Sequence record: NC_047749.1
Reading direction: 5' to 3' (one strand)
DNA from: Escherichia phage DT571/2
DNA length: 64,000 nt
Part shown: piece after piece, positions 1 through 47,550 of the stretch
Layout of the letters: each line of letters starts with the position of its first letter
How positions within the stretch are numbered: position 1 is the stretch's first letter
Translations under genes and position numbers: made by a program
The notes under the pieces: model-generated
Seen by the model: only the letters and a program-made list of their open reading frames with translations
Database searches by the model: none
What the model was told of the DNA's origin: nothing

Positions 1-779
1 TCTTAAACAGACTGAAGAAAGTTAAGGCTAAACAAGCCCCTATTCTTTATATGCACGGTGGTTTTGGTGTACGTTTAGATGGGGAAGAGTATGTATGGCC
101 TATTTTTGAAGGTAGATCCTCTGTATCTCTTGGGTATATTGGGGTCTATGAGATGTGTCAAATAATGTTTAGTTTACCACAGACTCATAGGGACTGTATT
201 GAATTTACAGAGGAGGTTCTCACTCACCTAAAAAATCGTTGCGAAGTTAAAGCTAATGAGACTAATCTTGGGTTTAGCTTGTATGCAACTCCTAGTGAGT
301 CTCTATGTAATCGCTTTAATAAACTACTGGAACGTAGGTTCCCTGAGTATTCTTGGCTAACAGATAAAGGTTATCTCACTAATAGTCATCATTTGGACGT
401 AAGGGAGAAGGTAGCTCCAGATACTAAATTTGAGTATGAAGCTCATTTCACCAAAATAGCTAATGGTGGTAATATATCATTTGTGGAACTACCACAAATG
501 AAAAAGTTCCATAAAGCTCTTGAATACGTAGTAGATAAGGGACTAGAATGTAGCCATTATATTGGTGTTAATATACCGATTGATGAGTGCTTCAACTGTG
601 GGTATATGGGTGAATCTGTTGCCTCTGAACGTGGGTTTGTATGTCCGAGTTGTGGATCTGAAGAAATAGAGGTTACACGTAGGGTTTGCGGGTACCTGGG
701 GTCCCCGGGCAGTAGGCCTTTCAATTCTGGGAAACAAAAAGAAGTGCTTGGTAGAGTAAAACACTTAAATCTTAAGTAA
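1..779 (+). CDS. nrdD: Anaerobic ribonucleoside-triphosphate reductase (class III, NrdD), C-terminal part; 5'-truncated by window edge
   Basis: Frame is open from window start to first ATG at 51. C-terminus has CxxC...CxxC zinc-ribbon (CFNCGYMG...CPSCGS) followed by glycyl-radical motif RVCGYLGSP, as in NrdD. Confidence 0.7.
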   Translation, partial: LNRLKKVKAKQAPILYMHGGFGVRLDGEEYVWPIFEGRSSVSLGYIGVYEMCQIMFSLPQTHRDCIEFTEEVLTHLKNRCEVKANETNLGFSLYATPSESLCNRFNKLLERRFPEYSWLTDKGYLTNSHHLDVREKVAPDTKFEYEAHFTKIANGGNISFVELPQMKKFHKALEYVVDKGLECSHYIGVNIPIDECFNCGYMGESVASERGFVCPSCGSEEIEVTRRVCGYLGSPGSRPFNSGKQKEVLGRVKHLNLK

Positions 780-8552: not shown

Positions 8553-8963
8553 ATGACTACTCCAACTCAGTGGACTGATGAACTGTTCGAAAAAATGTCT
8601 TCCGAATACGTTGCTCGTATGGAGCAATTCCCAGAGGATGAACGTCCGAGTGTTAGCATGGAAATTGTTAGTGAAATTGCCCAGGAAAATGGTGTAACTC
8701 CGAACGGTTTTCGTATGAAGCTGACTAAAGCAGGTTTGTATATTAAGAAAGCTGCTGGCTCTGCTTCTAAATCTAGTGCATCTACTGGAGAAAAAGCTTC
8801 CGGTGGTTCTCGTACCTCCAAAGCCCAGGCTCATGCCGACCTTCGTTCAGCGTTCTCTGATGCTGGCTTAGCACCAGATTTTCTGGATGATGCAATTATC
8901 GACAAACTGACCGGTAAAGCGGCTGCTCATCTGGCAGAAGCAATCCGAGCTATCACTAAGTAA
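8553..8963 (+). CDS. Hypothetical protein (136 aa), Ala/Ser-rich C-terminal half
   Basis: RBS taaggaaatataaaat-ATG; no catalytic motifs. Confidence 0.5.
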   Translation: MTTPTQWTDELFEKMSSEYVARMEQFPEDERPSVSMEIVSEIAQENGVTPNGFRMKLTKAGLYIKKAAGSASKSSASTGEKASGGSRTSKAQAHADLRSAFSDAGLAPDFLDDAIIDKLTGKAAAHLAEAIRAITK

Positions 8964-9694: not shown

Positions 9695-9910
9695 ATGAGA
9701 GGATCAATCATGGCAATGACAATAACACTTCCCAAGATTCAAGCAAAACTTAATCTACTTTCCACAGCACGCATTAATTATCAAGATAACATAGGCACAG
9801 TAAATCAAAAGGCGTACAAAGATGCGTTTCTGAAAGAATCTGCTGATTTGATGGATATGGTTACACAATATAATAAAGAACTCAAGATGGAAATCGCCGA
9901 TGATGACTAA
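9695..9910 (+). CDS. Hypothetical protein (71 aa)
   Basis: RBS gagagga; ATGA overlap with ligase subunit A start. Confidence 0.45.
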   Translation: MRGSIMAMTITLPKIQAKLNLLSTARINYQDNIGTVNQKAYKDAFLKESADLMDMVTQYNKELKMEIADDD

Positions 9911-10874
9911 TGTAAAAGAATTTATTAAACGCTGTCAAGAAGCATATTATCAAGGCATGTCTTTAATCTCTGATGAAGAATATGATCGCCTGGTAAAACG
10001 CTTCCCGTTAGAGGAAGAGATCGGGCCTAAGGGTGATATTCCACATCTATACCGTATGTATTCTTTACAGAAAGTTTATTATAATCGTGGAGATAAACCC
10101 CCATTTAACCCGTTAGGTCAAGTAGAAACTGATAAGTTAGATGGTTGTGCAATTTCCCTGCTATATATTAATGGCGAATTTGTTCAAGCACTAACTCGTG
10201 GTAATGGTATTCTGGGAAATGATGTCACAAGCAACGTAAGATTGCTGAACATCCCTAAAAAGATTTCTCAAAAAGTACCTACTCAAATCACTGGTGAAGT
10301 TCTAATTACAAAAGAAGTAGAAAATAAACGTAACTTTGCCTCTGGTGCTATTAACCTCAAAGATAGTGATGATTTCGTACAGCGTATCGGGGAAGGTGGT
10401 TTAATCTTCGTTGCATACGGTATCCAGTGTTCTGCTGAATCTGTAGGTATTACAGAAGCGTATTTAAAAGATATGCTTTGGCTAGAGAATGAGAACTTCT
10501 TAACAGTTGTTAATGTACGTTCCTTCTTTAAATGGATTCCAACGGACGGTAAAGTTGTTCGTATTAATGATAACAACAAATTCTTCCGTGAAGGCTGGAC
10601 TAATAAATTTCCTCGCGGTGCATTTGCTATTAAAGAGGATGAAGAAGGTGAGACTACAACTCTTACTAAAGTTGAATGGAATGTAGGGGCTTCTGGTAAA
10701 GTAACTCCAGTCGGTTATTTTGAACCAGTAATTATTGATGATGCTACAATTGTTAAAGCGACTCTTAATAACGTTGATTATATTAACTCTCTCGATCTAG
10801 AGATCGGTTGCCAGATTCGAGTGATTCGTGCTGGTGGTGTAATCCCGTGCATAGTAGAACGAGTATACGATTAA
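9900..10874 (+). CDS. NAD-dependent DNA ligase, N-terminal subunit (adenylation + OB domains)
   Basis: LigA-like N-terminus (ISDEEYDRL), adenylation lysine motif KLDGCA, OB-fold-like C-terminus; no Zn-finger, HhH or BRCT. Confidence 0.75.
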   Translation: MMTNVKEFIKRCQEAYYQGMSLISDEEYDRLVKRFPLEEEIGPKGDIPHLYRMYSLQKVYYNRGDKPPFNPLGQVETDKLDGCAISLLYINGEFVQALTRGNGILGNDVTSNVRLLNIPKKISQKVPTQITGEVLITKEVENKRNFASGAINLKDSDDFVQRIGEGGLIFVAYGIQCSAESVGITEAYLKDMLWLENENFLTVVNVRSFFKWIPTDGKVVRINDNNKFFREGWTNKFPRGAFAIKEDEEGETTTLTKVEWNVGASGKVTPVGYFEPVIIDDATIVKATLNNVDYINSLDLEIGCQIRVIRAGGVIPCIVERVYD

Positions 10875-10924
10875 TACATAACCCTTTGCTACCCATTTAC
10901 CATATCGGAATTATAAAGTGGTTA

Positions 10925-10953
10925 TTGACATTTTCGCCGCTTAGGTATATACT
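10925..10953 (+). promoter_or_regulatory. Consensus-like sigma70 promoter inside the ligase A/B spacer
   Basis: -35 ttgaca 10925-10930, 17-bp spacer, -10 tatact 10948-10953. Confidence 0.5.
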
Positions 10954-11017
10954 ATTATCATTCAGTTGAGGGATAGAAAGTTATGGCGAGGGTAAGCAAA
11001 GTTAGTTAAAATTGTAG

Positions 11018-11046
11018 TTGCTAAATGCTTAAATACTTGCTATAAT
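11018..11046 (+). promoter_or_regulatory. T5-type sigma70 promoter with extended -10
   Basis: ttgcta 11018-11023, 17-bp spacer, TGc-tataat 11038-11046, leader atttatataaattgataagga. Confidence 0.65.
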
Positions 11047-11073
11047 ATTTATATAAATTGATAAGGAAGAAAT

Positions 11074-11856
11074 TTGATGAAAATCGAAATTCCAACACAA
11101 TGTCCCTCTTGTGGTTCTAAGCTAGATCTTGTCAACGGACAATTATTCTGTCGTAATAAGTCCAACTGTCCAGCGCAATCAAGTAAGTTAATTGAGAACT
11201 TCTGTACAAAAATGAAGTTAAAGGGCTTTGGCCCGAAAACTATTGAGAAGCTGGAGCTGACGAAGATTTCAGAACTATTTTACCTAACCGAAGAAGATTT
11301 GGTTAGAGCCGTGGGTAGCAAGGTTGCCGCTAAGTTAATTAGCGAATTAAATACTAAAGTTCGCGGAGACATTGACTTTGGTTCAGTTCTCGGTTCTTTA
11401 GGAATCCCTCTAATTGGAGAGGTTGCAGCAAAGAAATTATCCCAAAATTGCACTAGCTTCCACGATGTGAAGGCTGACGGCAAGGCTGGAGAAAACTATA
11501 AAGCCTGGCTAAATTCCCCACAAGGCAAGGATGTTATCGAATTACCGTGGAAATTCTCAAATGGTATTAAAGGTGCTAAAGCTGACATCATCATTACAGA
11601 TGAATTAGTTGCCCCGCCAAATGGAATCACGGTGTGTATTACCGGATCTTTGCAAGATTTTGCAAATCGAACGGATGCAACAAACTATCTAGAAGGTCTA
11701 GGGTATACTGTTAAAAAATCAGTTACCAAAGACGTTAAATACCTCATCTGTGAGGATGAATCTAAGCGTTCTTCCTCATCTTATAAGAAAGCCGAAACGA
11801 ATGGGATAGAAATCCTGTCGATTAAAGAACTATTGGAGAAAAATAATAATGTCTAA
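11074..11856 (+). CDS. NAD-dependent DNA ligase, C-terminal subunit (Zn-finger, HhH, BRCT-like)
   Basis: Begins with Cys4 zinc finger CPSCGSKLD...CRNKSNC typical of LigA; Gly-rich helix-hairpin-helix-like segments; BRCT-like C-terminus (ITGSL...). Confidence 0.7.
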   Translation: MMKIEIPTQCPSCGSKLDLVNGQLFCRNKSNCPAQSSKLIENFCTKMKLKGFGPKTIEKLELTKISELFYLTEEDLVRAVGSKVAAKLISELNTKVRGDIDFGSVLGSLGIPLIGEVAAKKLSQNCTSFHDVKADGKAGENYKAWLNSPQGKDVIELPWKFSNGIKGAKADIIITDELVAPPNGITVCITGSLQDFANRTDATNYLEGLGYTVKKSVTKDVKYLICEDESKRSSSSYKKAETNGIEILSIKELLEKNNNV

Positions 11857-12616
11857 ACTGAACTGGAACGTAGAAGGTGTAACCGAGTCTCTGAAAGCAA
11901 AAGCCACTGCTCTGGGTGTTGCTGTAATCTCTCAAGAACAAGTAGCTGCTATCGCTGCTGAACTGGCTGCTGAAACTGGCAAAGACGTTACCGCTCGCTC
12001 TGTTGGCTCTAAGCTGCGTAAAGAAGGTTTCGAAGTACAGAAAGCTAACGAAGTACAGAAATCCCCGTGGACTCCTGAGCAGGAAGCTGAACTGGTTGAT
12101 TTCCTGAACTCTCATGCTGGTCAGTATACTTATGCTGAAATCGCTGCTGCTGTAGCTGGTGGTCAGTTCGGTGCTAAACAGGTACAGGGTAAGATCCTGA
12201 GTCTGGAAATGACCGCTTCTGTTAAACCAACTGAAAAAGCTGCTGCTGTTCGTTCCTTCACTCCGGATGAAGAAACTGATTTTGTTAATCAGGTTGTTGC
12301 TGGTGCTACTATTGAAGCTATCGCTGCCCACTTCGGTCGCAATATTAAGCAGATCCGTGGTAAAGCTCTGAGTCTGCTTCGTGAAGGTCGTATCGCTGCT
12401 ATGCCGGTACAGGAAACTTCAAGTGCTAAAACTCGTGAAGATCTGCTAGAAGGTCTGGATCTGGCTAACATGACTGTTGCTGAGATCGCTGAGAAAACTG
12501 GTAAGTCTGAGCGCGGTGTTAAATCTATGCTGTCTCGTCGTGGTCTGGTTGCTAAGGACTATGATGGTGCCGCTAAGCGTGCTAAACTGGATGCAAAAGC
12601 TGCGGCTGCTGAATAA
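11849..12616 (+). CDS. Abundant early DNA-binding-type protein built from ~4 tandem HTH-like repeats (possibly the T5 D5 equivalent)
   Basis: Four ~30-aa repeats of the form hxxIAxxxGxxxxxVxxKxL (e.g. VAEIAEKTGKSERGVKSMLSRRG); strongly biased GCT/GTT/CGT/CTG codon use typical of highly expressed genes; terminator directly downstream. Confidence 0.55.
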   Translation: MSKLNWNVEGVTESLKAKATALGVAVISQEQVAAIAAELAAETGKDVTARSVGSKLRKEGFEVQKANEVQKSPWTPEQEAELVDFLNSHAGQYTYAEIAAAVAGGQFGAKQVQGKILSLEMTASVKPTEKAAAVRSFTPDEETDFVNQVVAGATIEAIAAHFGRNIKQIRGKALSLLREGRIAAMPVQETSSAKTREDLLEGLDLANMTVAEIAEKTGKSERGVKSMLSRRGLVAKDYDGAAKRAKLDAKAAAAE

Positions 12617-12634
12617 TCTGGTAAATTAAACCTA

Positions 12635-12666
12635 AGGGGAGGGGGCTATGCTCCTTCCCCTTTTTG
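12635..12666 (+). terminator. Rho-independent terminator
   Basis: GC-rich hairpin aggggaggggg...ctccttcccc followed by ttttt. Confidence 0.6.
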
Positions 12667-12698
12667 CATTTAGAAGGCACGAAAGCGTGCAAAGGAGA

Positions 12699-14171
12699 AT
12701 GACCTTGTTTAACGTGCAAGCTGTAGTGTTGAAGATGCTTCTAGCTTCAGAACAGAAGCAAATAGCATTGGAAACATTCTCAAAACTGCATAAAGATCAT
12801 TTTAATGACGCTTTCTCCTCAATTTACCAAGCCGTCCAGAATTATTATAAAAAGTATAACACAATGCCGTCCATTGACGCACTGATGCTTGAGGCTAATA
12901 GGAACGCCCGCCTTTCTCAAGCTCTAGTCGTTTTAGCTAACACTCAAATTCCAGAAGTTAGCATGGAACAGGCACTTGAAGTCCTAGAGGCCGAGTATAC
13001 ACAGGATTTATTCCTGAAGCTTCTAGAAACAGACGTGCTTCAAGATTTAACAATGCTGGATCAGGGAGAAATTCTTAACCGAGTTGCCTCCCTTCACTTA
13101 AAATTAGAAGAGAAAGTAACGAATACTGGAAAAGTATTCAACGCAGATAACATGCGTATTTTCCAGAGAGAAGAAGATACCAAACTGAACTTAATCGCTC
13201 TTGGTATTTGTAATGAGTTCGACGCTCAAATTGGTTTAGCTCGCACAGAAACGTTACTGCTTGGTGGTTGGCGTGGTACTGGTAAATCCATTATCTGTTC
13301 AAACATACAGGTTCAGCAATATTTGAATGGAGATATTGCTCCATACTTCTCAATTGAGATGAAAGAACATGAAGTATTTAGACGTAATCTAGCTATGTTA
13401 GCTGGTGTATCAGCACTAGCAATGCGTAATAATACTCTAGAAGGTGCAGCTCTGTTGAGATTAGCCAGAACTAGAGCTAGGATGTTTAACGGTGGTGAAG
13501 AGCTTTTCGATAACTTCGTTAAACAGTATACAATGGCTAAGATGTGTGATTTCTACGATATGGAAAGTAAGCTAATAGAAGGGTATGAGCTACATACTCC
13601 TATGATTATTGTTTATGATCCTGAGCTGTCTATTACAACAGTTGACGTAGAATTAAATAAATTAGTTGCTAGATACGGGGATAAAGTTACAGTAGCTTTA
13701 CTAGACTATATTAACCAAACCCGACTTCCAGACTCTAAAACCATTGATATGTATGACTGGAAAGAACAGATGGTTGTTAGCTCGTCTTTCAAATCTATCT
13801 GCCAGAAACATAACGTGGCTGGTGTAGCTCCTTACCAGATCGATCAAGATGGTAGAACACGTATGTCGAAGGGGATTCTTGATTCCGCAGACATGGCTGC
13901 TAATCTTAATGCTGCAAAAGCTGATAATGGTCAAGGTGCTATTATGTTTGACTTCGTTAAGACTCGGTCTTCTGATAGCGTGAAGTTTATGCCTAAAATG
14001 AACTGGGAAACCCTGCGGATGGATAACACTACCAACCTAGCAATGGAAGATATATCTCAAATGGAAGCTGAGTTCGTTATCCCTATTGAGAAGGATAAGC
14101 CGGCTCAATCCAAACGTGCTAAGAAAGACAAAGCTGAAAATTCAACAGGTGAACAGGCCAGCGATATATGA
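12699..14171 (+). CDS. DnaB-like replicative helicase
   Basis: Walker A LLLGGWRGTGKS in the C-terminal RecA-like half; precedes the primase with an ATGA overlap. Start uncertain: track ORF begins at 12648 inside the terminator hairpin, so the ATG at 12699 or TTG at 12705 after SD aaggaga is more plausible. Confidence 0.6.
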   Translation: MTLFNVQAVVLKMLLASEQKQIALETFSKLHKDHFNDAFSSIYQAVQNYYKKYNTMPSIDALMLEANRNARLSQALVVLANTQIPEVSMEQALEVLEAEYTQDLFLKLLETDVLQDLTMLDQGEILNRVASLHLKLEEKVTNTGKVFNADNMRIFQREEDTKLNLIALGICNEFDAQIGLARTETLLLGGWRGTGKSIICSNIQVQQYLNGDIAPYFSIEMKEHEVFRRNLAMLAGVSALAMRNNTLEGAALLRLARTRARMFNGGEELFDNFVKQYTMAKMCDFYDMESKLIEGYELHTPMIIVYDPELSITTVDVELNKLVARYGDKVTVALLDYINQTRLPDSKTIDMYDWKEQMVVSSSFKSICQKHNVAGVAPYQIDQDGRTRMSKGILDSADMAANLNAAKADNGQGAIMFDFVKTRSSDSVKFMPKMNWETLRMDNTTNLAMEDISQMEAEFVIPIEKDKPAQSKRAKKDKAENSTGEQASDI

Positions 14172-19748: not shown

Positions 19749-20033
19749 ATGCTTACAGAGCCTGATGCTCACCAATTATTGGTCGGTTCCTCGTTCATTT
19801 TGAACGAATCAACGATAGTTGATAATCCAAATAAATTGTCTAATAGACAACTGGCAGAATATCTAGGAATTTTAAGTCTACGAAATTATGCCGAATACAA
19901 GTTTACAAACGATCCTAGTTTGGACATACAATATGTCCCAGTATGGATACCACGTTTAGTAATCGACACTAACCCACTAATCGCAATTAACAAATCGAAA
20001 TTAATCTTTAAAGAGGAAATAAAATATGGCTAA
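19749..20033 (+). CDS. Hypothetical protein (94 aa); weak
   Basis: ORF without a convincing RBS; may be leader sequence for the next gene. Confidence 0.3.
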   Translation: MLTEPDAHQLLVGSSFILNESTIVDNPNKLSNRQLAEYLGILSLRNYAEYKFTNDPSLDIQYVPVWIPRLVIDTNPLIAINKSKLIFKEEIKYG

Positions 20034-20799
20034 GTCTTGGGGCGAAACTACTGGCGGTTCTAACGATAAAATCGAATTCCTGAAGTTCAACAACGGTATC
20101 ACTCGTGTTCGTATCGTTTCTGGTGTTCTTCCACGTTATGTCTATTGGCTGACTAATAAAGAGGGTAGCGTAGCTCCTTTCGAATGTCTCCGTTTTAATC
20201 GTGACAAAGAGAGCTTTGTTCGTGGTAAAGCTGATCCGGTTCATGAGATGGGCTTCTTTGAGAAAGAGCTGGATAAAGATGGTAACCGCGTTCCGCTGAA
20301 ACCGAAGAAAAACTATATCGCTTTTGTTATCGACCGTTCTGATAACAAACTGAAAGTAATGGAAGTCAAAGCTACTATTCTGAAAGGCATCCAGTCTATC
20401 ATGAAGCAGTTGAGTCTGGCAACCCCGTTTGATATTGATATTTCTATCGAGAAAAAAGGCAAAGGTTTCGATACTGAGTATGATGTACAGCAGATTGCTG
20501 CTATGCAGTTCCAGATTAAGCTGCAAGATCCTAACAGTGCAGAATCTAAGCAATATGCTGCGGATGTAGATCTGATTGGTGAAGCTATGTGTGATGAAGA
20601 TGGCGACATCATTAAGTTCGAAAAAGTTCCTTCCCTGGAACAAACCTATCCGGTTCCTACCTATGAAGAGCAGAAAGAAGCAATTCAAGCCTTCATGGAA
20701 GGTCGTGAGAATAAAGATGATGATGCCAAATCTGGTAACAGCAATGCTGGTTCCCAGAAAGGTATTGACCAAGAAGCTGCAAGCGATCTGGACGACTAA
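20026..20799 (+). CDS. Abundant early protein with acidic C-terminal tail; putative ssDNA-binding-type protein
   Basis: Strong RBS aagagga; highly biased codon use; acidic C-terminus ...QEAASDLDD as in phage SSBs; strong terminator downstream. Confidence 0.45.
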   Translation: MAKSWGETTGGSNDKIEFLKFNNGITRVRIVSGVLPRYVYWLTNKEGSVAPFECLRFNRDKESFVRGKADPVHEMGFFEKELDKDGNRVPLKPKKNYIAFVIDRSDNKLKVMEVKATILKGIQSIMKQLSLATPFDIDISIEKKGKGFDTEYDVQQIAAMQFQIKLQDPNSAESKQYAADVDLIGEAMCDEDGDIIKFEKVPSLEQTYPVPTYEEQKEAIQAFMEGRENKDDDAKSGNSNAGSQKGIDQEAASDLDD

Positions 20800-46173: not shown

Positions 46174-47550
46174 TTAAGATGCAGCGTAAGCACCGGATAC
46201 AACGCCGTTCTCGAAGTAACGTTGCAGGTTAACACGCTGAGTAACGTAGTATGCGTCACGCTGTTTGCCAGCTTGGCGCTCACGTTCAACAGTAACAGCA
46301 CGCTGACGTGGCATCACGAAGTTATCTTTATAAACAATAACTGCGAACTCTTTACCAGCTGCTTTAGCTGGGAAGTACTCAGAAACTACAACCGGCAGAC
46401 CATAAATACGACCAACCTGACCCTGCAGTTTAACAGCATCATTACCAACCTGAGCAACATCCTGCCATTCTTCATCTTCCAGCAGATCGTAGTAAGCATC
46501 CATAGATACAATCAGTACCAGTTTGGACAGTTTCAGACCATGACGGCCCAGCTTACGACGCAGTTTAGAGATAGTTTTAGCAGTTACCAGAACAGAACCA
46601 TCAGCTTTAGCTTCGGTAGTAACTTTAGCACTATCTTCACTAGCAAGAGTCAGCAGACCTTTCGGCTTACCAGAACCATCACCAGTCATGAAGGCTTCTT
46701 CAATAGAAACAGCGTGTGCTTCAATTAGACGCTTACGAAGCAGTGGCAGCAGGGAGAAGATTGCATCTTCTTCAGTTTCATCAGTAATGAAGGATTTAGC
46801 AGCCAGTTTGTAAGTACTGAAGTGGATTTCTGTAAGAGCGCCTGTAACTTCGCTACCAGTAGTATTGTCACTACCATAAGCAGAAGCAGCAACCCAAGTA
46901 GCTCTACCAGCATCCGGTTCAACCAACATAGTAAGAATCTTACTGGACATCGGCAGTTCTTCGAACAGTGCGCCAACTACTAGCTCTTTCTGCAGGTCAC
47001 GGATAATACGCTGAGAGAAAATAGTTTCATAGCTTTCACTAGAAACTTCTACAGAAGAGGACTGATTCACTGCTTTCAGGTGTTTTTGACCGTGTTCGGT
47101 TTCGAATACGCCTTTTTCCATTACATAGGACAACAGAACCAGTTTTTCTACTTCGTCTTCAAAGGTTTCCTGAGTACCGTACAGTGCTTTAGCAACACTA
47201 TCACCAACGAAGGAACGACCTTCACGAGCTGTTAGCAGAGACTTAATTTCGTCCTGAAGACCAACAATAGTTTCCTGTTGTTTTTCTACAGTTTGTGCAA
47301 ACAGTTCTGCACTCTTCTTAGATTTCTCATCCAGAGACTTAACCAGTTCCAGAGCTTGTTCCAGTTTCTGACGATCTTCGCCAACTGCTTTAGAAACCAG
47401 GGCATTCATACGAGCCAGTTCTTTTTCTTCCTGCTCTTTACGCATACGTTCAGCTTCCTGAGCTTTCTGAGCAGCGGTCAGACCTTCCAGAGATTTAGCC
47501 AGATCACCCAGACCAAGTTCTTCTTTCAGCTTATTAATATCAATAGTCAT
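46174..47550 (-). CDS. Major capsid protein precursor (T5 pb8-like, 458 aa) with N-terminal scaffold domain
   Basis: 458 aa; N-terminal ~160 aa charged coiled-coil (scaffolding-like) followed by a capsid-fold-sized domain; highly expressed codon bias. Confidence 0.8.
   Translation of the reverse strand: MTIDINKLKEELGLGDLAKSLEGLTAAQKAQEAERMRKEQEEKELARMNALVSKAVGEDRQKLEQALELVKSLDEKSKKSAELFAQTVEKQQETIVGLQDEIKSLLTAREGRSFVGDSVAKALYGTQETFEDEVEKLVLLSYVMEKGVFETEHGQKHLKAVNQSSSVEVSSESYETIFSQRIIRDLQKELVVGALFEELPMSSKILTMLVEPDAGRATWVAASAYGSDNTTGSEVTGALTEIHFSTYKLAAKSFITDETEEDAIFSLLPLLRKRLIEAHAVSIEEAFMTGDGSGKPKGLLTLASEDSAKVTTEAKADGSVLVTAKTISKLRRKLGRHGLKLSKLVLIVSMDAYYDLLEDEEWQDVAQVGNDAVKLQGQVGRIYGLPVVVSEYFPAKAAGKEFAVIVYKDNFVMPRQRAVTVERERQAGKQRDAYYVTQRVNLQRYFENGVVSGAYAAS

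Follow-up and report, generated by a model that had tools for sequence, protein, structure and literature searches.

The reading frame at positions 11849-12616 (+) of the analysed DNA was assigned by sequence comparison to the T5-like (Tequintavirus) gene D5 (T5.118), and its product is very probably an early, abundant DNA-binding protein made of four HTH modules, which would coat the phage DNA and thereby permit the switch from early to late gene expression. The window analysed comprises 64,000 nt of Escherichia phage DT571/2 (NC_047749.1; one strand, 5' to 3'), and its closest relative is phage DT57C. Gene identity, synteny, domain anatomy and expression signals were obtained in the present analysis; DNA binding and the genetic roles of D5 were taken from the literature.

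Identity and Genomic Context of D5

The reading frame has an ATG start and codes for 255 aa (ORF list; coordinates including the stop codon), exactly as given in a preliminary description of this DNA, which had also named the T5 D5-type DNA-binding protein as a candidate. This candidate proved to be correct. The nucleotide sequence is 99.7% identical to a DT57C gene labelled 'D5 protein/DNA-binding protein', and the alignment to T5 D5 that had been proposed as a check revealed 252 of 255 identical residues (YP_006946, T5.118) over equal protein length, with the three substitutions A25D, S88A and A206V relative to T5. Moreover, PHROG 323 ('transcriptional regulator, D5-like') was matched over residues 1-253 (E 1.7e-71), and a tblastn search detected the D5 gene in 901 phage records. 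A scan of NCBIfam yielded no dedicated D5 model, the sole match being a sub-threshold sigma-ECF region 4.

D5 is located between ligB and the D6 helicase-primase-polymerase genes, as in Demerecviridae genomes, and the order ligB-D5-helicase-primase-polymerase is common to Tequintavirus, Sugarlandvirus, Novosibvirus and Thalassavirus. Gene neighbours and upstream promoters are identical to those of T5 D5: the region 10875-11080 differs from T5 in one base, which lies outside both promoters, and P-K 28b and 28a are annotated there in T5. The start of D5 is overlapped for 8 nt by the ligB stop (ATGTCTAA). All features are listed in Table 1.

The preliminary description had further ascribed to the gene a terminator of its own, which was recovered as a 13-bp stem with eight G-C pairs (12634-12662) followed by TTTTT, with a fold energy of -25.6 kcal/mol (z = -2.5). 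A comparable hairpin with T-run is found 3' of D5 in Sugarland (where it is annotated), PM135 and River4, which represent three other genera. No RNA family match was obtained in an Rfam scan of positions 10800-12800. With this arrangement early transcription of ligB and D5 would start at P28b and P28a, both strong sigma-70 promoters, with a strong intrinsic terminator after D5.

Table 1. Features of the D5 region (positions in the window).
Feature	Position	Strand	Basis and remarks
Early promoter P28b, TTGACA-17-TATACT, upstream promoter of the ligB-D5 unit	10925..10953	+	Promoter scan, 11/12 matches
Early promoter P28a, TTGCTA-17-TATAAT, extended -10 TG	11018..11046	+	Promoter scan; T5 annotation
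ligB, NAD-dependent DNA ligase subunit B	11074..11856	+	ORF list; DT57C and T5 annotation
Shine-Dalgarno-like GGAGA, 9-10 nt 5' of the D5 ATG	11835..11839	+	Direct reading of sequence
D5 CDS, orthologue of T5.118	11849..12616	+	255 aa, 27.0 kDa, pI 6.8
HTH module 1, aa 6-58	11864..12022	+	AF2 helices; hhalign to modules 4 and 2
HTH module 2, aa 74-118, Myb/SANT-like (WTPEQEAEL...YAEIA...KQVQGKILS)	12068..12202	+	AF2; hhalign; weak Myb matches
HTH module 3, aa 137-178, nearest copy of module 2	12257..12382	+	hhalign; shuffles; HTH_23 at aa 151-184
HTH module 4, aa 199-231, like sigma-70 region 4 or LuxR-type HTH	12443..12541	+	Pfam Sigma70_r4_2
Conserved C-terminal segment and helix (GLVAKDYDGAAKRAKLDAKAAAAE)	12542..12613	+	Alignment; AF2 helix 240-254
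Intrinsic terminator, 13-bp hairpin and T-run, 18 nt past the D5 stop	12634..12667	+	Hairpin scan; fold energy
169-aa antisense ORF, GTG start; by-product of D5 codon choice, no gene	11822..12331	-	ORF list; codon counts

Modular Architecture of the D5 Protein

D5 is predicted by structural modelling and sequence comparison to hold four HTH units. The AlphaFold2 (AF2) model (mean pLDDT 91.9, pTM 0.48) consists of four three-helix units and a C-terminal helix. The helices span residues 11-22, 29-43 and 49-58 in unit 1, 76-88, 95-101 and 109-118 in unit 2, and 139-150, 155-162 and 166-178 in unit 3; in unit 4 a short helix (205-207) is followed by 210-217 and 221-231, and the C-terminal helix covers 240-254. 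With a pTM of 0.48, how the modules are placed relative to one another is uncertain. The structure prediction, likewise proposed in the preliminary description, thus displays all-helical three-helix modules, and the number of four HTH repeats claimed there stands; they are not abutting 30-aa units, however, but HTH cores of about 25-30 aa within modules spaced 62-68 aa apart (W6, W74, F137, about L199). The consensus hxxIAxxxGxxxxxVxxKxL put forward for the repeats is exact in the third unit (R3) and present with an insertion in R2, whereas R1 and R4 fit it loosely.

Conservation (0.71-0.87) and basic charge are both highest in the third helix of each unit, with net charges of +4, +2, +4 and +3 in modules 1 to 4, and the first helices are acidic. 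The third helix of module 1, ARSVGSKLRK, has a mean conservation of 0.87. Within the C-terminal segment D237 and G240 are invariant and K246 is nearly invariant in the alignment of homologues.

Profile-profile comparison related R2 to R3 (E 1.1e-8, probability 95.6%), followed by R3-R4 (6.1e-5), R1-R4 (4e-4), R1-R2 (3e-3), R1-R3 (6.5e-3) and R2-R4 (0.014, over 15 columns only). When single sequences were shuffled, a clear signal resulted for R2-R3 alone (z = 8.0, 0/500), and R1-R4 and R3-R4 were marginal (z about 2.4). Since the sequence similarity of R1 and R4 to the remaining units is weak, a common origin of all four is unproven. The repeats of the protein have diverged too far to be visible as DNA repeats: Tandem Repeats Finder detected solely a near-duplication of the 12-nt GCTGCTGAAACTG. 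A D5 variant of 309 aa contains a fifth, R2-like unit.

Matches to HTH families were found in most D5 homologues. The Pfam model Sigma70_r4_2 (PF08281) scored 29.7 bits on aa 204-230 (cut-off 25.7) and was matched by 28 of 33 homologues. Unit 3 matched HTH_23, and homeodomain-like and Myb matches on units 2 and 3 were weaker than that of Sigma70_r4_2; the Myb model (PF00249) reached 18.0 bits on aa 71-100 of this D5, below its threshold of 24.4, and was matched by nine of the 33 homologues (best E 4.2e-6). Viral proteins with multiple HTH units matched D5 with E values down to 1.7e-6. A sequence search of the PDB gave nothing significant (best MYB21, E 0.45; c-Myb also weakly matched), and a Foldseek search of the PDB with the full model and a fragment model of modules 2-3 returned no E value of 0.001 or below (best 0.057 and 0.097). 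Its top matches were nevertheless almost all HTH DNA-binding domains, among them the CDC5L Myb repeats (probability 0.90 at E 0.097), TraR/NarL, Cbp1, Tc3/Mos1 and POU, which is an enrichment in qualitative terms only. Taken with the all-helical modules, the Sigma70_r4_2 match above cut-off and the homeodomain-like and Myb matches support the HTH nature that had been ascribed to the repeats.

Two database labels can be judged from these results. D5 is annotated as an RNA polymerase sigma factor in Salmonella phage Shivani, and the Sigma70_r4_2 match together with a weak Sigma70_r3 match speaks for this label. An alternative sigma factor is nonetheless effectively refuted by the lack of sigma region 2, for which no Pfam match (Sigma70_r2) appeared even at E up to 10: NCBIfam TIGR02937 (sigma70-ECF) gave 15.2 bits (cut-off 42.9) and covered model positions 126-156 only, i.e., region 4, and the remainder of D5 is composed of further HTH modules. 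In T5, moreover, all gene classes are transcribed by sigma-70 holoenzyme. In Klebsiella phage vB_Kpn_3 the protein is labelled as a single-stranded DNA-binding protein, with which its high abundance and its location amid replication genes would agree. Such a function is highly improbable, as the D5 model contains helices only, with neither an OB fold nor a strand of at least three residues, no SSB family was matched in Pfam and NCBIfam, and the annotated single-strand DNA-binding protein of T5 is D11. The transposase-like label found on D5 records was rejected.

Codon Usage and the Antisense Reading Frame

The extreme codon bias mentioned in the preliminary description was confirmed as the strongest in the window. 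D5 has the lowest Nc (30.2) among window ORFs of at least 100 aa and the highest E. coli CAI (0.715) of the 30 long ORFs scored; ligB and D6 reach 0.25-0.26 and the major capsid protein 0.63 (CAI weights after Sharp and Li 1987). In three other genera, too, D5 has a lower Nc than any of its neighbouring genes (Sugarland 35.0 vs 53-56, River4 30.7 vs 47-56, PM135 36.8 vs 42-50). D5 would thus be translated very efficiently, because its codons resemble those of highly expressed host genes, and in virion preparations of phiR2-01 it is among the most abundant proteins.

The same codon choice accounts for the long antisense ORF, which had been regarded as a probable compositional artefact. This ORF is codon-aligned with D5, so that stops in it arise only from the sense codons TTA, CTA and TCA; D5 contains two of these, vs about 11.5 expected from neighbouring genes, and the antisense frame is open because D5 avoids them. 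That the frame encodes a real protein overlapping D5 might be argued from its length and from the equivalent frame in Klebsiella phage Sugarland, which is open for 248 codons, but Sugarland D5 shows a codon bias of the same type, and the orthologues of PM135 and River4 carry 19-21 stops in this frame, with a longest open run of 34 codons. Furthermore, the antisense ORF has a CAI of 0.31, and the promoter scan of the minus strand detected no promoter-like site just upstream of 12331, the nearest one (12873-12844) being about 500 nt away. A genuine antisense gene is therefore extremely unlikely.

Proposed Role of D5 in the Early-to-Late Switch

The T5 RefSeq note describes D5 as 'DNA-binding protein; required for DNA replication and late transcription; also is involved in shutoff of expression of ...', and McCorquodale 1979, which is cited in PMC12630848, likewise puts D5 on record in its title as a DNA-binding protein. 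According to Klimuk 2020, the mechanisms of early-to-late switching in T5 remain unknown, all T5 gene classes are transcribed by the sigma-70 holoenzyme, and late genes need phage factors in addition. A 2026 preprint describes D5 as the HTH-containing trigger of retron-Kva2: the purified protein is a 26-kDa monomer (mass photometry), its HTH is predicted to bind retron msDNA, D5 expressed alone is toxic, and a T5 retron escaper carries D5 W74*. This escaper sits oddly with D5 as an essential protein. In a paper on DRT4 the T5 DNA-binding trigger is ORF55, not D5, and papers on the T5 helicase, BF23 and pre-early genes do not mention D5.

The D5 product is an overall neutral protein of 27 kDa, predicted to be all-helical, in which four HTH modules are joined by conserved linkers and followed by a C-terminal helix that is conserved as well; modules 2 and 3 are apparently Myb/homeodomain-like and module 4 is sigma-region-4-like. 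In the proposed mechanism each module may insert its basic, conserved third helix into the major groove, so that one monomer would contact several successive turns of the duplex and the phage DNA would be covered by many monomers in stoichiometric amounts. With its pI of 6.8, D5 carries no net positive charge, an uncommon property in a protein that coats DNA non-specifically. On the recorded genetics, D5 is required in replication, in late-gene activation and in early-gene shutoff, with the host sigma-70 RNA polymerase staying in use. D5-coated DNA would then be the likely template state that permits the switch; we infer both the binding of several grooves by all four modules and coating as its cause.

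Alternatively, D5 could act as a sequence-specific activator of late genes or an appropriator of RNA polymerase, in which module 4 contacts the polymerase or -35-like elements and the other modules read sites near late promoters, no general coat being formed. Unit 4 lies above the Sigma70_r4_2 cut-off, as in most homologues, some records carry the labels 'late gene transcription factor' or 'D5-like transcriptional regulator', and T5 late genes, although transcribed by sigma-70 holoenzyme, need phage factors yet to be identified (Klimuk 2020). We consider this unlikely. The codon bias is comparable to that of the major capsid protein, which argues for stoichiometric rather than regulatory amounts of D5. 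Moreover, gpD5 reportedly shows cooperative binding to duplex DNA with little sequence preference, which counts against a specific activator; cooperative coating goes back to biochemistry of 1979-1983. D5 is also required for DNA replication (T5 RefSeq note), and the available part of Klimuk 2020 reports gpT5.026 in polymerase preparations and makes no mention of D5.

The coat may, more tentatively, be extended to a phage 'chromatin' of distinct architecture. Four-module monomers could polymerise on successive turns, the coat could mark replicated DNA as late template and be sensed by defences such as retron-Kva2, and the number of modules, as in the five-module variant, could tune the footprint; this picture is possible, if rather doubtful. 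To our knowledge, neither a structure nor a mode of binding of such a type has been described for D5.

As D5 is a classical, long-studied T5 gene, no new entity is added here, and its four-module Myb-like and sigma-region-4-like anatomy is a modest refinement. The analysis clearly sets out the domain anatomy of D5, i.e., four HTH modules with a conserved basic third helix and a conserved C-terminal helix, corrects the stray database labels sigma factor, SSB and transposase-like, and explains a long antisense ORF by codon choice. In a switch that keeps the host sigma-70 polymerase, D5 is the obvious candidate on the DNA side; since it is a switch candidate as well as a known retron trigger, a module-wise mutational map would be useful to the field.

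Comparison with Known DNA-Binding Proteins

Among known systems, the Myb/SANT R2R3 proteins (c-Myb, MYB21, CDC5L) share several traits with modules 2 and 3 of D5, which are likewise tandem and start with W/F-T-P-[ED]-[EQ]-E, contain an aromatic residue followed by xxIA in helix 2, and have a third helix that is basic; the CDC5L Myb repeats are top fold matches of D5. Unlike in Myb, the three regularly spaced tryptophans are largely substituted (W74, Y95, L117), and D5 is viral, contains four modules of mixed type and scores below the family threshold. Module 4 resembles the HTH of sigma-70 region 4 and of LuxR-NarL proteins, the DNA-binding domains of TraR and NarL being among the top fold matches; unlike those proteins, D5 lacks sigma region 2 as well as any receiver or ligand-binding domain, and module 4 is only one of its four modules.

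Cbp1 of Sulfolobus (PDB 2lvs), which binds CRISPR repeats, is small like D5 and consists solely of imperfect HTH repeats and linkers, and its fold match to D5 is non-significant (E 0.27-0.75, probability 0.51-0.54). It differs from D5 in being archaeal, with no sequence similarity, and in being sequence-specific. A functional analogue is the histone-like protein p6 of phi29. It is abundant early, its binding to duplex DNA is cooperative, and both replication and the early-to-late transcription switch require it; p6 is unrelated to D5 in sequence and fold, is much smaller and belongs to a protein-primed replication system.

Identification of the D5 Gene

The ORF was assigned by three sequence matches. 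In a megablast search against phage genomes the D5 stretch was present in 515 records, with Escherichia phage DT57C as top match (99.7% identity, annotation "D5 protein/DNA-binding protein"). The encoded protein is identical to T5 D5 (T5.118, YP_006946) in 252 of 255 residues and matches PHROG 323 ("transcriptional regulator, D5-like") over its whole length (E 1.7e-71). These matches place the window in a Tequintavirus genome and identify the ORF as the classical gene D5. The preliminary description had noticed an HTH-repeat protein and named T5 D5 as a candidate; the observation holds, and its reading as an abundant DNA-binding protein of this type is supported. The D5 start precedes the stop of the preceding ORF by 8 nt (ATGTCTAA).

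By tblastn the gene was found in 901 phage records, comprising phages of Escherichia, Salmonella, Klebsiella, Proteus, Vibrio, Aeromonas and Pectobacterium. Among 1.84 billion representative proteins, a profile search detected 525 clusters with E ≤ 0.001, 76 of them with E ≤ 1e-30, and most of the top-scoring matches were 233-262 aa long. The order ligB (NAD-dependent DNA ligase subunit B), D5, D6 helicase, primase and DNA polymerase is common to Tequintavirus, Sugarlandvirus, Novosibvirus and Thalassavirus. D5 DNA or protein with 98-99% identity also occurs in the short records OR848168.1 and OR847187.1, labelled "Listeria phage LM 4-14-1" and "LM 4-11-1," as well as in partial proteins assigned to Enterococcus faecalis (P0020, P0038). 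Such records look more like mislabelling or contamination by a T5-like phage than like true Gram-positive hosts.

Features of the D5 gene, its surroundings and its protein (window positions for DNA, residues for the protein)
Feature	Position	Strand	Remarks
D5 ORF	11849-12616	+	ATG start, 255 codons
GGAGA upstream of D5	9-10 nt before ATG	+	read from sequence
Antisense ORF	11822-12331	-	codon-aligned antisense frame of D5
Promoter-like site upstream of ligB	10925-10953		promoter scan; T5 P-K 28b annotated in corresponding stretch
Promoter-like site upstream of ligB	11018-11046		promoter scan; T5 P-K 28a annotated in corresponding stretch
ligA	9900-10874
ligB	11074-11856
D5 terminator hairpin	12634-12662		13 bp, G+C-rich, T-run; 18 nt past stop
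Genes next after D5 in codon bias (major capsid protein, D11, D3; genes ordered by CAI, positions by coordinate)	8553-8963, 20026-20799, 46174-47550	+, +, -
Module 1	helices 11-22, 29-43, 49-58		AlphaFold2
Module 2	helices 76-88, 95-101, 109-118		AlphaFold2
Module 3	helices 139-150, 155-162, 166-178		AlphaFold2
Module 4	205-207 (short turn as helix 1), helices 210-217, 221-231		AlphaFold2
C-terminal helix	240-254		AlphaFold2

Four HTH Modules

Structure prediction, suggested as a check in the preliminary description, yielded four HTH modules. The AlphaFold2 model, built on 33 homologues, is all-helical with a mean pLDDT of 91.9 and a pTM of 0.48, so that the modules are predicted with confidence but not the way they are placed relative to each other. 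The four ~30-aa units described earlier are thus the HTH cores of modules that follow one another at a spacing of 62-68 residues. The repeat pattern proposed at that time fits module 3 exactly and module 2 with an insertion, modules 1 and 4 only loosely.

Profile-profile comparison of the four repeat segments (R1 to R4, corresponding to modules 1-4) related R2 to R3 (E 1.1e-8), R3 to R4 (6.1e-5), R1 to R4 (4e-4), R1 to R2 (3e-3), R1 to R3 (6.5e-3) and, over 15 columns only, R2 to R4 (0.014). The R1-R2, R2-R3 and R1-R4 alignments share a consistent register, with W6 opposite W74 and the IA-containing helices matched. Comparing single sequences, R2-R3 alone was clearly above shuffles (z = 8.0). 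The third helix is the best-conserved segment of every module (mean column identity 0.87, 0.85, 0.71, and 0.79 for modules 1-4) and carries net charges of +4, +2, +4, and +3. In modules 2 and 3 the first helix has a charge of -4. Such conserved basic third helices are what one would expect of HTH recognition helices.

Module make-up varies within the D5 family. A relative of 309 aa (P0121) has an additional module-2-like unit, giving five modules, and so supports the modularity; together with a 289-aa relative (P0192) containing two module-3-like units, it indicates that HTH modules duplicate as units. Inside module 1, a 12-nt near-tandem duplication (GCTGCTGAAACTG, 2.2 copies, 11954-11980) encodes AAELAAET, where homologue lengths vary in the alignment.

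In Pfam, module 4 exceeded the Sigma70_r4_2 cut-off (29.7 vs. 25.7 bits), and modules 2 and 3 gave sub-threshold matches to HTH_23 (homeodomain-like) and Myb. Among the 33 homologues, Sigma70_r4_2 was matched by 28, HTH_23 by 20 and Myb_DNA-binding by nine (best E 4.2e-6). No significant sequence relative was detected among solved structures (best MYB21 and c-Myb, E 0.45-1.4). Foldseek against the PDB returned nothing at E ≤ 0.001 for the whole model or for a model of the modules 2-3 fragment (pLDDT 89.5). Below this significance level, HTH DNA-binding domains fill nearly all top ranks of both lists, including CDC5L Myb repeats, TraR/NarL, Tc3/Mos1 transposase DNA-binding domains, POU, the multi-HTH protein Cbp1 and sigma factors. 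Among predicted viral structures a Vibrio phage D5 matched best (E 1.8e-27, TM 0.79), followed by multi-HTH phage proteins (E 1.7e-6 and weaker).

Database labels naming other functions were rejected. A sigma factor (phage Shivani) would need region 2, which is absent, and the sigma-ECF model scored 15.2 bits (cut-off 42.9), in region 4 only. An OB-fold SSB (vB_Kpn_3) disagrees with the all-helical model, and a transposase (some JGI records) with a protein of HTH modules only.

Expression Signals

The extreme codon bias noted earlier holds: D5 has the lowest Nc (effective number of codons, 30.2) among window ORFs of at least 100 aa and the highest E. coli CAI (0.715) of 30 long ORFs scored with the weights of Sharp and Li 1987. 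Preferred codons are GCT (39/45 Ala), CTG (17/19 Leu), and GGT (17/19 Gly). The major capsid protein (CAI 0.63), D11 (0.56), and D3 (0.53) follow, all needed in stoichiometric amounts; ligB and D6 reach 0.25-0.26. T5 annotations describe D11 as ssDNA-binding and D3 as DNA-binding protein, with terminators after D11 and one gene beyond D3 (following T5.114). Low Nc values of D5 recur relative to neighboring genes in Klebsiella phage Sugarland (35.0 vs. 53-56), Vibrio phage River4 (30.7 vs. 47-56), and Proteus phage PM135 (36.8 vs. 42-50), so that high expression looks like a conserved property.

The same codon choice accounts for the antisense ORF, previously regarded as a probable compositional artefact. 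Stops in this frame arise only from sense TTA, CTA and TCA codons, of which two were observed (TCA at 12419, CTA at 12446) vs. 11.5 expected from neighbor codon usage. In Sugarland D5, whose bias is of the same type, this frame is open as well; in PM135 and River4, 19-21 stops interrupt it. The antisense ORF is a by-product of D5 codon choice.

The stretch with both promoter-like sites differs from T5 by one base, outside both promoters. The DNA ligase is split, and the ~200-bp spacer between ligA and ligB holds the strong early promoters P28b and P28a; ligB and D5 therefore use other promoters than ligA. The terminator noted earlier is present as a hairpin (fold of -25.6 kcal/mol, z = -2.5), and a similar hairpin with T-run follows D5 in Sugarland (annotated), PM135 and River4. 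As the promoter scan gave no plus-strand site between D5 and D6, we infer that helicase and primase expression needs read-through of this terminator, which would keep D5 high and helicase low. In the region 12634-12710, the annotated D6 start (ATG 12648, as in T5 (T5.119) and DT57C) falls within the hairpin loop. D6 orthologues in Sugarland, PM135 and River4 begin with M[Y/I]NVQAVV, which aligns with TTG 12705 (AAGGAG 12692-12697, 7-nt spacer) or ATG 12699. D6 as annotated thus probably begins about 17-19 codons too early.

Function of D5

Rice et al. 1979 (J Biol Chem) and Fujimura and Roop 1983 (J Virol) reportedly found gpD5 to be abundant, of ~29 kDa and cooperative in binding duplex DNA, and T5 DNA polymerase is said to be inhibited on gpD5-saturated nicked duplexes. 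The entry for D5 in the T5 RefSeq record is [quoted passage not shown]. The original publication is McCorquodale et al. 1979 (J Virol 29:322), cited by title in PMC12630848. In phiR2-01 virion preparations D5 was among the most abundant proteins.

According to a 2026 preprint (10.64898/2026.07.11.737809), the type IX retron-Kva2 is triggered by T5 D5, a protein that is mildly toxic on its own and behaves in mass photometry as a monomer of 26 kDa; AlphaFold3 predicted binding of its HTH to the retron msDNA stem-loop. The escaper mutations reported for T5 are three missense changes (G53D, V149I, G232D) and the premature stop W74*. G53 and G232 are nearly invariant and lie in or just past helix 3 of modules 1 and 4. 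The stop needs explaining, because D5 is classically essential, and could reflect for example a mixed population, suppression or read-through.

Most likely, D5 acts as a coat. Made early in infection in stoichiometric amounts, each monomer would engage duplex DNA in several consecutive major grooves via its four basic recognition helices and thereby cover the phage DNA. The coated template may then support replication and late-promoter use and silence early promoters. Identity, anatomy and expression signals are results of the present analysis, DNA binding and the genetic roles are taken from published work, and the use of all four modules and the coat as cause of the switch are inferred. In PMC7472727, sigma-70 holoenzyme is stated to transcribe all T5 gene classes and the switching mechanism is described as unknown. 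Compared with the known T5 protein, the object itself is not new, and its four-module anatomy is a modest refinement beyond what has been published.
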